The notes beneath the pieces were generated by a model. It was not told the origin of the DNA. It ran no database searches and was given only the letters and a program-made list of their open reading frames with translations. From an uncultured virus (IMG/VR IMGVR_UViG_2061766007_000727) (Duplodnaviria; Heunggongvirae; Uroviricota; Caudoviricetes), in the IMG/VR virus record IMGVR_UViG_2061766007_000727: a stretch of DNA of 64,000 bases, one strand, 5' to 3'. The translations under genes were made by a program, and so were the position numbers. The stretch's first letter is position 1. The number at the start of each line of letters is the position of its first letter. Positions 20,777 to 25,600 of this stretch are shown here, in pieces.

Positions 20777-21771
20777 ATGAAGGGTGCGATGAAGATATGG
20801 ATTGCATACTGCTCAAAGGACAGATACGCAGACAATGGTGTGTACGTGCTTGTGCAGGCGAAGTCGAAGAACGAGGCGAACACCAAGTTGGAGAACACAT
20901 ACGATTATGAGATGGTACACACCATCAGCCTTGTGAGTGATGAGATACAATACGAGTATCTTACGGAACAGGGAAGGGAGTTCGTTGAGGATATGGGAGG
21001 AGTTCTTGAGTTGGGTTCGACAAGGATAGATGACGAGAACGATTTGGTGTCCGCAGGATTGTACGATGGTGACTATATCATTGGGGACACCACGTATGAG
21101 GTGCAGATAAAAGCGTTCACATCTGCGTTTGAGAAACCGAAGTGGTACACGATGAACTACTGCAACGGAGTTGATTCAAAGTATTGGAAGGCGTTGAAGA
21201 AACGGAGTAAGAACCGAAGTGGTGACATATTGGATGAATACCGACTTGTTGACAAGGAAGGAAACGTTGTTGACAAGTGTGATATATGGAGATAACATTT
21301 TAAAAAGATATTACTATGGATTTAAATTTGACATTAAGCGGTGAGAGCGAGGAGTTGAGAGCCGCATTGGAGAATGTAAGGGACATATTATGGAACAACA
21401 GTGCCGAATCACTGCAACTTGAAGGTGATGTGAAGAACAACCTTGAGGACAGTGTGGACTTTGTATATAACACGTACCGAGCGAGGGAGATATACCAATC
21501 AGCAATGGAACGTATGGTTAGCGAGGTGGAATGGAGTGAGGAGGATTTTGAACTTTTGAAACTCCACAACGGAGGAAGGTATTGGAAGACGCTGGATGAT
21601 GATTTGGCAGGAGACGTTGATAATTTTGCTGACAAGGTGTATGGTATGTTGGACGGATTCATAACAGAGATGGATTCCGACTTTGACTTTAACACGTTAG
21701 ACGAGTATATATCTACGGCTGACACATTCTTCTATCTTGAGGATGGGTTGAGGGAACGCTACGGATACTGA
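20777..21771 (+). CDS. two late-promoter hypothetical genes (20777-21295; 21316-21771, very acidic)
   Basis: ORF track; terminator at ~21802-21836. Confidence 0.7.
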
Positions 21772-21879
21772 TATTCTCATATAACCCAAGATGGTTGATA
21801 CGGGGTGTGCTTTGAAGGTACACCCTTATTTTTTTTGCATAATTGTTTTGTAATTAAAAAATCTTATATACTTTTGTGG

Positions 21880-21958
21880 TGTGGTATGGTGTAACTGCGC
21901 AAGCGACATCGCCCATGACCCACAAAGTAACCGTTTGAATAAAGCGGTTATTTTTTTT
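21880..21958 (+). ncRNA. candidate small RNA (promoter, GCAA-capped stem, terminator)
   Basis: TACTTTTG 21869-21876; no ORF; GTGG/CCAC and TATGG/CCATG stems; terminator TAACCGTTT/AAAGCGGTTA+T8. Confidence 0.45.
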
Positions 21959-22029
21959 GTAAAAAAGTTACCCCACCCTATTGCACGTAACAAAATTTGT
22001 ATTACTTTTGTGGTATTGAAAGTTCTTTG

Positions 22030-22606
22030 AAAGTGTTGATAGGAAAAAGAAAAGGTGTTTGCGCAGACGAGAAATCTCTGTGTATAATCTCCTAAATTCG
22101 GTGGAAATCCTTAATATAAAGGCTGCTTCGGTAGAAGTATAAGAGTAAGTCATAGGCATTGTATGGTGGAACTTTTGTATTAAACGCACTAACCAATAAT
22201 GTGTAAGGACTATACCGAGCGAAAATAGTACAATCGTGCAGAGACCAGACTGTTAGAGCGAGGTAGCAACTCGTGAATATGGGAACTACTATAATCGTGT
22301 AGAGACTGAATAGGAGATACCTATAGTTGGAATTATCATTATACTTATTAGCATAATATATCTTAGTGCCTACTTTGACGTGATGAAGGCTTGATAATCC
22401 TTCATAAGTATATTACAATGATTACTTGCAAGAATTTCAATATGGTAATGTCAGTCAAGACCACAACAGACAATAAGGTTGAAAATCCGAGATTGTGTAA
22501 ATCGAAAATGTAGTTATTCGACATTAAGTCTTGTAATGAATTGTTTGGCTATGGTAACATAGAGTGGTAGTTTTTCGATGTCTTTTGTTTTTTCTATCAA
22601 CGCTTT
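22030..22606 (+). ncRNA. free-standing group I intron-like ribozyme enclosed by a ~30-bp terminal helix
   Basis: P3, P4, P5, P6, P7, P8 and P9.0 pairings are all readable; own promoter at 21981-22010; no interrupted ORF or tRNA. Confidence 0.75.
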
Positions 22607-22635
22607 TATTTTAAAAAACGATAAACAAAAGAGTT

Positions 22636-25600
22636 ATGGTTATAAAGACATTTTCCGATGGGACGCAGAAACTCAACACGGACAGATACGAGCAGTATCC
22701 GATAAGGTATAGTGACGAGGAGATACTTGCGGTCATAGACCACGAAGTGAGTACGAGTGTTCCAATTCCAGAAGTCAAGTTACTGATGCGTTACACGAAG
22801 TGGTTGGACAGGCGTGGGTTCTTTAGGGAAGACCTTCAATGTGATTTTGAGCATCAGATAGAGACGTTTTTAAAGGATTTTAATGTGGATAATTAAATAA
22901 AAGAGTTATGACTGAATTAGGAGAAAAAGTGTTCAACGATGCTAACAAGTGGTGGATTGACGCAGCACTACAAGGTAACGTAAAGGCTACTGATTTGATA
23001 AAGAAGACCATTGAGTTAATGGAAGAAGCGTATGAAAATCAATTCAGAGACAAGATAGACGAGCGGGTTGAGGAGATAGCGATGCAGAGGGCGAAGGACA
23101 TCAATGGTATTCCTGTTCGGACTTTGATTGCGAAGGACATAGTCACCACAATGATAGGTGGCGGACTGAAAGTGAAGAACGTAGATGCGGCAAGAATGGC
23201 GGTTGATATGACAGACGAGTTGTTGAAAGCATTAAAAAAATAACATACTATGAATAAGGAAGAATTAGAGCGGTTACGCACCGCATACGAGTTTGAAGTA
23301 GCCTTGTATAAAGGCAAGGGAGAGATAATCACTTTTGAGCAGTGGTTAAAGGATAAGGGGATTAAAGTTGATACCGACAAGGTTAACTCAACCGACTTAG
23401 ACAAGCCTTCGTTAAACCAGATTGGTATGTGTACATTAAAGATAGGTACGGATATGGGAGGCAGTGATGTCACAACGGTCGCTTACATAGATTTCGAAAA
23501 GGAGCAGATGAATATATCAATGGATTAAGAGAGGAGATGGGATTATGAGTGAGAATGATTTATATAAATACATAGGCATATTATTGCTGATAAATATTCT
23601 TTCAGTGCTCTATATGTTGTTTATGCACTGTAATCTGGGTGCTGACACTTATGATTGGAAGTGGGACACTAAGAAAAATGAGAATATAGCGTATGGATTG
23701 GTGATAAGTTGTATAGTGATAATTGGCATTCTTATGACATTTAGAACGATGGAAGTGATTGGGTTATGAGTATAGCAATAAAAACGTTTATGTACAAACC
23801 GCCATCTGTATCACAAATAAGGGTTGTAGCGTTAGATTCAGAAGATAATGTCACGGAAGTGGTGTGGCAGTCAGAAAAGTTCAATCCGCCTGTATATAGT
23901 TTTGATAACGAGTGGTATGAAGGATTGAAGTATACGAGCAGTGTGTATGATATGACAGACTATGAAAATATACCAGAGTTAGAATTTCAGATATTAGTCG
24001 ATAATGAGTGGAAATACTATTCTAATGTAGTTAATGATTATTACAATTTATGAGCAAGATACATATAACGATAGAAGATGGCATTGAGCCAGTGGTAGCG
24101 TTAGACCACGTAAGGAGTGTGGTGAAGCACGGAAGGATAAGTAAGAACGATACGATGTATTGTTACTTGACGTTGTTTCCAGACGGAACGATGGTGCAGA
24201 CGAATGATTACAGAAAGAGTGATTGTTTTGTGGTGTACAAGGATAGAAGAAGAAATAAAGAGTAAGTGATATGAGAGTACCGACAAAGAAGAATGTCAAT
24301 TGGAACTTGAAAAGAAGAATATTCAAGTTAAAGAAACGCATAAGACGTTGGTGGGAACGATATGTCCATAGGATGGAGATAAGACGTTACATTAACGATA
24401 ATGAGAGTTATGTGGTTAAGGCTATCAGTTTGAAGGGAGAATACACAATAACAATAGATAGTTCTGTGTATTACGATAGAGACTATGTTTACGCTTACAA
24501 GTTGATAGCGATGAAATATGGATTAGATATGAGCATCAGTAACACTCGTGTTGCAAGTTTGTATTTGATAACACTTAAAAAAAGACAATAAGTATGGAAG
24601 TAACGAGTTTAGAACAATCGAAGGCTCTGTTGGAGAGCGGACTGAAAAGGGAGAGTGCAGACCTATGGTGGATAGAGTGTTACCAAAGTATATGGGTTGG
24701 CAACGATGAGGAGGGCAAAAACCTTGAGTATGCGGATGAGCCGATATACTATTTAAGTTTCATCAACGAGGCAATACACGACACGACACAGGACAAGAAG
24801 GTTGCTATACCTGCTTGGAGTTTGGGAAGGTTGTTGAGGATGTTCAAGGACAAGACCTTTGAGTTGAACGTGTATAACAAAATGTGGTCTGCATCAAGTG
24901 GTTTTGATATAGAGCAAGAAGAACATTGGACATATCAAGAGTTCGATGAGACACCGATAGGTGCGGTGGTGAAGTTGATACTTAAACTGAAAAAGGAAGG
25001 AGTTGACTTTATATTAACAATTTAAAACAACAATTATGAGCATGAGTGAATGGGCAGAGCGAGAATGTAGAATCGCCTGCAAGAGAGAGAATCCAGATTT
25101 TGATTTTGATTCGGATGAGTTTGACTACGGATGTAGTTGTTACAAGTCAGCGTTAAAGGCTTATAAATCGCTGATGGAAGATGGACACAGTGGTGCGAGT
25201 TTCGGCTTTACCAAGAACATCTTGATTAGGCTGATGGAGGGACAGCCCTTGACACCGATAACAGACAAAGACTTCTTTGAAGGGGATAATTTAAGATGTT
25301 TGGGAGATGATGAGTATTTGAAAGAACGAGGATTGAAGTCGGACATACAATGTCCGAGAATGTCAAGTCTGTTCAGAAAGGAGACGTTGGATGGTAAGGT
25401 AACGTACCACGATGTTGACAGAGCGTACTTTGTGGACATTGAAAATCCTTCAAACACTTATTCATCTTGTGTTAGTTTCCTTGACGAGTTAGTTCCCATA
25501 ACGATGCCGTATGTGCCGCAGAATGGGAAGTACAAGATATATGCGCAGGAGTTCTTGACAGACAAGAAGAACGGAGATTTCGACACAAGGGGAGTGATAT

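Follow-up and report, generated by a model that had tools for sequence, protein, structure and literature searches.

A group I-type RNA without exons, closed by a long terminal helix, in an uncultured phage genome

The stretch of DNA analysed here, referred to as the window, comprises 64,000 nt of the uncultured virus record IMGVR_UViG_2061766007_000727 (Caudoviricetes) and carries at 22016-22610 an ORF-free RNA gene on the + strand, located behind a promoter of a repeated type. The RNA folds into a group I core related to a large family of introns in tRNA genes of gut and rumen phages; in the window, tRNA halves, a 5' exon partner for P1 and an endonuclease gene are all missing, and the two ends of the RNA are paired in a long closing helix. 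Exon-less copies, most of them with a derived core, form a recurrent class, being found in at least eight other phage lineages; in these, the segment directly 5' of P2 that contains the internal guide is paired with the 3' tail rather than with a 5' exon. In the explanation that we favour, with a probability of roughly 0.6, the element is a non-splicing, self-closed, group I-derived RNA descended from a phage tRNA intron. Both the loss of splicing and the mode of processing are what we infer.

Locus, fold and closing helix of the RNA element

The large ORFs of the window are all on the + strand. Those that can be recognised code for phage proteins, namely a helicase, an amidase, and proteins resembling an anti-repressor and a sheath protein. 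The ORF scan of the window found no ORF of at least 80 aa in 21772-22635, and the ORFs overlapping the RNA element (32-73 aa) are of chance size only, in agreement with an earlier note on this DNA that had described an ORF-free element. No tRNA was found in the window, nor around the element when the ARAGORN intron option was used, and no ORF runs into either end; the element thus has no host gene, as had been claimed, and the window copy likewise contains no homing endonuclease gene. Searches of GenBank phages with the RNA region, with 24 kb of the window and with the sheath-like protein gave no match, and no relatives of the neighbouring proteins of 151 and 86 aa turned up in viral contigs. 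The 348-aa and Ant-like neighbour proteins were tried as a route to relatives and rejected, having matched unrelated phages only (loci L001-L091); the short blastn matches to these loci lie inside a coding HTH gene and are due to chance, and an Rfam search of ten of the loci returned nothing.

The promoter of the element consists of TTGCAC and TACTTTTG separated by a 16-nt spacer, a signal that we take to be of the Bacteroidota -33/-7 type. It fully matches a consensus of about 30 nt that occurs ten times on the + strand of the window, mostly in inter-ORF gaps, while the bare 8-mer TANNTTTG is not enriched there (64 found versus 74 expected). The promoter of its own that had been ascribed to the element is therefore one of these ten copies. 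The next ORF starts at 22636, 28 nt past the 3' strand of the closing helix and its U run, and the terminator scan called no terminator between the helix and this ORF. The RNA may thus be nothing more than a leader of the operon downstream, and its description as a stand-alone transcript is uncertain.

Other copies of the consensus have features of their own. Those at 1473, 8755 and 40262 share a leader of about 30 nt (GTGATAA..AAACAAAAC..TTGAAC), which may be a conserved 5' UTR element. The copy at 21839-21876 heads an ORF-poor unit of about 80 nt with a terminator at 21924-21954; because promoter copy and terminator bracket it, the unit 21839-21960 is a possible small RNA. Its pairing with the tail of the RNA element (7 complementary bases, 22576-22582) was rejected as being at chance level, about three such matches being expected by estimate.

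The features of the element are as follows.

21981-22010, + strand: promoter (TTGCAC 21981-21986, 16-nt spacer, TACTTTTG 22003-22010), from the repeated consensus
22022-22032, + strand: leader motif GTTCTTTGAAA, the sole exact copy in the window
22028-22059, + strand: 5' strand of the closing helix, ending one base before P2 (fold, duplex energy)
22060-22084, + strand: P2 hairpin with GAAA tetraloop at 22071-74 (99% of cells paired, 95 cells with changes on both sides)
22087-22113, + strand: 5' strands of P3 (22087-94), P4 (22097-103) and P5 (22108-13), with J3/4 and J4/5 (Rfam alignment, covariation)
22114-22203, + strand: P5 extension, variable periphery, unalignable among family members
22204-22230, + strand: 3' strands of P5 and P4 (22213-19), 5' strand of P6/P6a (22220-30) (Rfam alignment, covariation)
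22231-22286, + strand: P6 extension, variable (family alignment, public-run contigs)
22287-22334, + strand: 3' strand of P6a/P6, J6/7, 5' strand of P7 (bulge A22303, G22304-A22309), 3' strand of P3 (22311-18), 5' strand of P8 (22319-34) (covariation)
22335-22432, + strand: P8 extension, variable (family alignment, public-run contigs)
22433-22464, + strand: 3' strand of P8 (22433-46), short J8/7 (22447-50), 3' strand of P7 (22451-56), A22457, 5' strand of P9.0 (22460-64)
22467-22568, + strand: P9 (22467-74/22540-47) with a variable extension, P9.1 (22549-62), 3' strand of P9.0 (22564-68)
22570-22571, + strand: omega region, G22570 followed by U22571 at the omega position of the family (family alignment)
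22571-22576, + strand: U-rich linker of 6 nt (sequence)
22577-22608, + strand: 3' strand of the closing helix, then a U run (fold, duplex energy)

The group I core extends from P2 to P9.1, with 512 nt between P2 and omega and a large periphery, and it contains the P3-P7 pseudoknot with the P4-P6 and P3-P9 domains. At the gathering score no Rfam family matched the window. The search for Intron_gpI (RF00028), which the earlier note had proposed as a check, gave a partial match at 22086-22318 (E 0.0073), but at 21.3 bits this remains below the gathering score of 50; the alignment covers model positions 48-158, namely P3, P4, P5, P6 and the 3' strand of P3. A compact relative with the same P9 block, L141, matches the full model with 75.7 bits. 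No other Rfam family was found on the flanks of the element in the scan of 21700-22900 with E up to 10, and the large phage ncRNAs of Rfam 15, including ROOL and GOLLD, did not match the window either at gathering or with E up to 1. Free-energy folding recovers the 31-pair terminal helix, P2, P3, P8, P9.0 and P9, the z-score being -2.4 on the + strand and -2.0 on the - strand.

The pairings were further examined in 60 distinct members aligned from P2 to omega, in which pairs were counted at the helix positions of the window; sliding the 3' partner by 1-2 columns as a control gave paired fractions of 0.0-0.65 (0.2-0.65 for P3, P4, P6a, P7, P8, P9.0 and P9). For P3 (22087-94/22311-18), 84% of cells are paired versus 42-51% after sliding, with 23 both-side changes, and for P7 (22304-09/22451-56) 82%, with 68 both-side changes and several pair types. 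P4 (22097-103/22213-19) is paired in 94% of cells and changes from U-A to A-U in 20 of the 60 members (40 versus 20), P5 in 85%, P6a (22225-30/22287-92) in 88% with 72 both-side changes, P8 in 96-98%, P9.0 (22460-64/22564-68) in 94% with C-G replaced by U-A in 12, and P9 in 89% with 70 both-side changes. In P2 the window itself has a compensatory change of G-C to A-U (22067/22077). The core pairings that had been read from the window alone are thus all present and supported, including P3 and P7, for which a lack of covariation had been named as a refutation. P9.1 is an invariant hairpin (22549-22562) with a GUAA loop and therefore carries no covariation information either way.

The sequences flanking the core, 22028-22059 and 22577-22608, pair with each other over 31 pairs, slightly further than had been noted. 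The closing helix comprises 24 Watson-Crick and 7 G.U pairs with one G/G mismatch, and its energy is -31.6 kcal/mol for the + strand RNA versus -19.3 for the - strand (z -7.1 against shuffles). Being more stable on the + strand, it represents an RNA structure rather than an inverted repeat of the DNA. In the window copy the stretch preceding P2 has its pairing partner in the 3' tail rather than in an exon upstream, so that there is no conventional P1, as had also been observed; a trinucleotide search of the window leader for a 5' exon partner gave weak, wobble-rich candidates only. Among the substitutions listed for the 5' strand in related contigs (A>G at 22039, 22044, 22052 and 22053, and U>C at 22059), all five preserve pairing. 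The last of them turns the helix-top pair U22059.G22577 into C-G in contigs from the DNA runs X7, X11 and X13, and in other exon-less copies the helix-top pair is G-C.

The locus is present in bovine and goat gut metagenomes with about 93-99% identity. It is retained in colinear contigs, a single contig of 1128 nt in X7 and a single contig of 4820 nt in X11 that reaches the flanking genes, and compared with the window the P5 extension is replaced in X7 (73-nt segment) and the P8 extension in X11.

Relationship to phage tRNA introns

The first core pattern used for searching viral contigs, GTAGAGACTGAATAGGAGAT, gave no matches there; two core patterns matched 15 and 102 stretches, many from contigs of 100-470 kb. 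Of 86 distinct elements, 57 contain a tRNA according to ARAGORN with its intron option; Leu-UAA and Arg-UCU predominate, and Tyr, Met and Thr also occur. About 16 of the remaining 29 have a T-arm in the 3' flank. The intron length reported by ARAGORN equals the distance from P2 to omega plus the P1 segment (579 for L105 and 497 for L095). The three bases preceding P2 covary with the anticodon loop, GAG occurring with CUU or UUU, GGA with UCU (9), GUG with CAU (4) and GCA with UGU (3); judged from these sequence pairs, what covaries in the intron-type members is P1, including its U.G pair. Introns of about 207-246 nt in tRNA-Leu(UAA) genes of Ruminococcus and Oscillospiraceae contain an identical P9 block. 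Considering the tRNA calls, the T-arms, the P1 covariation, the Rfam match of L141 and the shared P9 block, the family consists of ordinary group I tRNA introns, presumably those labelled IC3. The element had been described as a free-standing group I ribozyme; this holds for the group I type and for the absence of a host gene, but the descent from phage tRNA introns had been missed.

Several members differ in their setting. In L237-L283 the invariant P9.1 block of the phage family recurs in compact tRNA-Leu(UAA) introns, many of them from Ruminococcus or Oscillospiraceae genomes, as well as in a few Bacteroidales, which suggests that host and phage tRNA introns have been exchanged. L157 and L177 seem to interrupt a protein-coding frame rather than a tRNA gene, with a 5' exon ending in CTT and the guide GAG, and L164, a member of about 850 nt in a tRNA intron, has an internal ORF that possibly encodes a homing endonuclease.

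A scan of metagenomes gave 25 matches in 24 loci, 16 of which have the P2 hairpin and are real; the other nine, e.g. in soil or marine contigs, show no feature of the family, look like chance matches and were set aside. In a rumen RNA library (X15), 157 contigs match four blocks only (22052-22139, 22184-22227, 22272-22359 and 22404-22579), and the stretches between them consist of other sequence. Such a pattern pointed to a large family whose core is conserved and whose periphery is free to vary. No depth was observed in X15 for the bins 22008-22051 and 22580-22623, which contain most of the window-specific helix strands, or for the flanks, an observation made on Logan contigs, which can show neither absence nor transcript ends. 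One X15 contig of a relative runs from 22569 through 36 letters with a P2-like hairpin to 22086; this join could represent a circular intron of the relative, a tandem copy or an assembly artefact.

Group I introns are known from the anticodon loops of bacterial and phage tRNA genes, including those for Leu(UAA), Arg and Met/Ile (Williams, bioRxiv 10.1101/2020.01.27.920355). The window copy shares with them the homologous P2-P9.1 core, and most of its phage relatives are such introns. However, it lacks the tRNA halves and P1, has a 31-pair helix where the introns have the 5-pair anticodon stem, and differs by a J8/7 that is 2 nt shorter, a shifted omega, its own promoter and a large periphery.

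Exon-less copies and their derived core

The exon-less copies in other phages are as follows.

L223: exon-less, followed by a terminator
L093: exon-less, with a promoter-like TATCTTTG box and a terminator
L211: exon-less
L225: exon-less, located between tRNAs, closing helix of about 20 pairs
L096: exon-less, closing helix of about 16 pairs
L100/L154/L209/L218/L229/L230 group with variants L214 and L227: exon-less; two tandem copies flank a tRNA-Arg gene in a 302-kb phage
L180/L233/L236 group: exon-less
L163: exon-less

When the 5' and 3' flanks of each of the 13 aligned exon-less copies are paired with each other, the best duplex ends exactly at P2 in 12 of them. In four lineages a 3' hairpin is found whose loop complements the bases before P2; the stems of these hairpins are unrelated, and loop and guide covary as GUGUG/CACAC (L093), UUUGUG/CACAAA (L223) and AUGAG/CUCAU (L211 and the L180 group). 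Going by their sequences, these loops look like a spliced anticodon loop paired with the guide, C-G taking the place of the U.G pair of the intron. The G at the guide position is absent in 7 of the 13 copies.

The motif GTTCTTTGAAA is common to 11 of the 13 aligned copies and also occurs in L096. The P1 loop of a tRNA-Met(CAU) intron in L228 contains it as well, one base past the 5' splice site, and it is this position that makes descent of the window copy from an L228-like tRNA intron probable. The motif is also present in a plain inter-tRNA spacer of L105 (1398-1408; cf. L100, L154 and L096); rather than belonging to the ribozyme, it may serve these phages as a spacer or processing signal. 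In L173, L180 and L236 the exon-less copy is closely followed by a tRNA-Leu(UAA) gene without an intron, and in L233 the downstream tRNA-like sequence looks interrupted. The core tree (FastTree, 350 columns) does not resolve the exon-less copies as one clade; they may therefore have arisen several times.

The segment between P8' and P9.0, comprising J8/7 and P7', is 11 nt long in the window copy. It is 10-11 nt long and nearly always CA-ended in 9 of the 13 aligned exon-less copies and in L233 and L236, versus 13 nt and CC-ended in 38 of 39 measured non-exon-less viral members and 13 nt and nearly always CC-ended in 26 of 27 measured members from bacterial genomes. Overall, 64 of 66 intron-type relatives have 13 nt, and the two exceptions are one record (L144, identical to L273); a search of bacterial genomes for the short J8/7 signature gave no matches. 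As J8/7 holds P1 in group I introns, a shorter J8/7 would fit, by analogy, an RNA that no longer docks P1. The exceptional record (L144, positions ~436-925 of a 410-kb record) contains a tRNA-shaped gene in which a ribozyme with the short J8/7 replaces the whole anticodon loop and the guide G is missing, so that splicing could not yield a normal tRNA. This arrangement may be an intermediate between the intron and the exon-less forms.

Further changes lie near the active site. Of the 131 columns with at least 93% conservation among the non-exon-less members, the window deviates at 4, namely 22067/22077 (the compensatory pair in P2), 22085 and 22457. A22457 replaces the C of the family, which breaks the pair with G22302 (G-C in the family) beside the guanosine site; G22304-C22456 and the bulge A22303 are present. 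The bulged A and the flanking P7 pairs are presumably the guanosine-binding residues, and in one exon-less subgroup the G and the bulged A before P7 are lost. The earlier note had proposed G22570 as omega G. This G is present, but the omega position of the family aligns to U22571, one base later; the aligned base is G in 43 of 47 non-exon-less relatives and in 3 of 8 exon-less lineages. The 3' ending of the window copy is shared by L125 and L176, which ARAGORN calls as intron-split tRNAs.

Across the exon-less set, the median number of deviations at the conserved columns is about 7, versus about 1 of 131 in the intron-type members on which the columns were defined. The peripheries of the exon-less copies are unalignable with that of the window while the core blocks align, and 22 of 77 core pairs show changes on both sides within the 13 copies. 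From these sequence patterns we infer that selection probably maintains the RNA in its exon-less state; the core of the family is conserved overall, and an intact core could therefore partly reflect recent spread rather than selection.

Proposed function, alternatives and significance

In the proposed scenario, the ancestor was a group I intron in the anticodon loop of a phage tRNA gene whose tRNA exons were subsequently lost. The RNA would be transcribed from its predicted promoter (21981-22010) and fold into the P2-P9.1 core, while the 5' leader and the 3' tail would pair in the 31-pair helix starting at the base beside P2. This helix would take the place of the tRNA exons and of the P1/P10 substrate helices. 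The lack of a 5' exon partner for the guide, the J8/7 that is 2 nt short and the broken pair closing P7 point away from ordinary self-splicing, and the element is probably retained as a structured RNA in its own right. Its ends are probably set by the long helix, which could for example be an RNase III-type substrate and would then separate the RNA from the downstream message. The word 'domesticated', which had been used for the element, appears fair in view of its own promoter, the closing helix and the recurrence of the exon-less class. Our leading guess, a tentative one, is that the RNA does not act by catalysis but via its fold, to which a factor of the host or phage, or a tRNA anticodon loop, would bind; left for possible chemistry are G22570, the U.G pair at the helix top and a U.G pair at the canonical -1 position (U22579.G22057).

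Alternatively, the element could be a decaying relic, a tRNA intron that is accidentally transcribed after deletion of its tRNA and has not yet eroded. The changes near the active site (short J8/7, the G22302/A22457 mismatch and the shifted omega) and the larger number of deviations of exon-less copies at conserved columns are what a relic would show. However, its promoter matches the full consensus, a relic would have no need of a 31-pair closing helix (z -7.1), and the listed substitutions in relatives preserve its pairing. The same short J8/7 occurs in different phages with fully diverged peripheries, the closing pairing recurs with covarying sequences, and 22 core pairs have changed on both sides in the exon-less set, all of which makes decay unlikely.

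A bolder version of the domesticated RNA would make the exon-less copies a new class of phage RNA genes, in which the guide is held by a mimic of the anticodon loop, either a hairpin loop such as CUCAU or, in the window, the long helix. The mimic would be displaced during infection and the RNA would then bind, shield or cut tRNA anticodon loops; we regard this as a long shot.

It is still less probable that the element is a working self-splicing intron whose exons are the strands of the closing helix, so that the message downstream would begin with a long hairpin after splicing. U22059.G22577 or U22579.G22057 would serve as the P1 wobble and G22570 as omega G. Such an intron would make use of the U.G pairs in the helix beside P2 and of G22570, and the intron-split tRNAs that ARAGORN calls in L125 and L176 have the same 3' end as the window copy; the six bases following G22570 can pair with 22049-22054 in a P10-like manner, the core is otherwise intact, and ORFs lie directly downstream with no terminator between. 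But U22059 is C in the X7, X11 and X13 contigs, where the pair is C-G and no wobble is left, other exon-less copies have G-C at the helix top, five of the eight lineages lack omega G, and J8/7 is shortened. The findings on the helix top and on J8/7 also weaken the suggestion of the earlier note that the terminal helix acts as P1; trans-splicing, circularisation and early timing, which it had suggested as well, gained no support from the analysis. Moreover, the guide strand would lie 3' of the core, a topology that we do not know from any group I RNA, and the A-rich and U-rich strands make alternative pairing registers likely by chance.

Least probable of all is a processing ribozyme like GIR1, cleaving at or after G22570 or U22579/G22580 and freeing or modifying the 5' end of the downstream message: it would share the architecture of GIR1, including the position immediately upstream of an ORF (PMC3679873), but the 31 pairs would still hold the products together after cleavage, most exon-less relatives lack omega G and sit in tRNA arrays or before terminators rather than ORFs, and the Rfam scan with E up to 10 matched Intron_gpI only, and partially. 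The GIR1/lariat-capping model itself gave no match in that scan of 21700-22900. Rfam is taken here to include a GIR1 model.

By analogy, GIR1 is nevertheless the closest counterpart of the self-closed RNA in construction. It is likewise group I-derived, without 5' and 3' splice sites, with a rearranged core, closed by a pairing between sequences on either side of the core, and located just upstream of an ORF; it differs in being eukaryotic, about 180-200 nt long, embedded in another intron and of demonstrated branching chemistry (PMC3679873). The window RNA can also be compared with a group I ribozyme of Clostridioides difficile, which lies in a leader rather than within a tRNA or coding gene. 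The 5' leader concerned is said to contain a c-di-GMP-II riboswitch and a group I ribozyme that splices, has a P1 and an aptamer, and chooses between GTP attack sites. Introns are likewise reported from genes of large gut phages, including tRNA-Tyr(GTA): those in tRNA genes of Lak megaphages have been termed 'enigmatic' and group I introns are frequent in Jug jumbo phages, but as described in the accessible parts of these papers they interrupt genes, and exon-less copies are not mentioned there (PMC6784885, PMC12880540). In the literature covered, to which subscription journals and supplements do not belong, exon-less group I RNAs of phages or bacteria are undescribed.

Apart from GIR1, every natural group I RNA is to our knowledge an intron. 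GIR1 has been called a unique example of a group I intron with a new role (PMC3679873). If the explanation favoured here is true, a recurrent and apparently selected exon-less form would be the second such case and the first in bacteria or their viruses. The natural series leading from the tRNA intron through the tRNA body of L144 to hairpin-closed and helix-closed forms could show how a selfish ribozyme becomes an RNA gene. The finding is also relevant to the question of what makes large gut phages retain so many tRNA introns, and to the strong core signal in the rumen RNA library. Should the anticodon-mimic reading also be true, the RNA would be a ribozyme-derived player in the conflict between phage and host over tRNAs.
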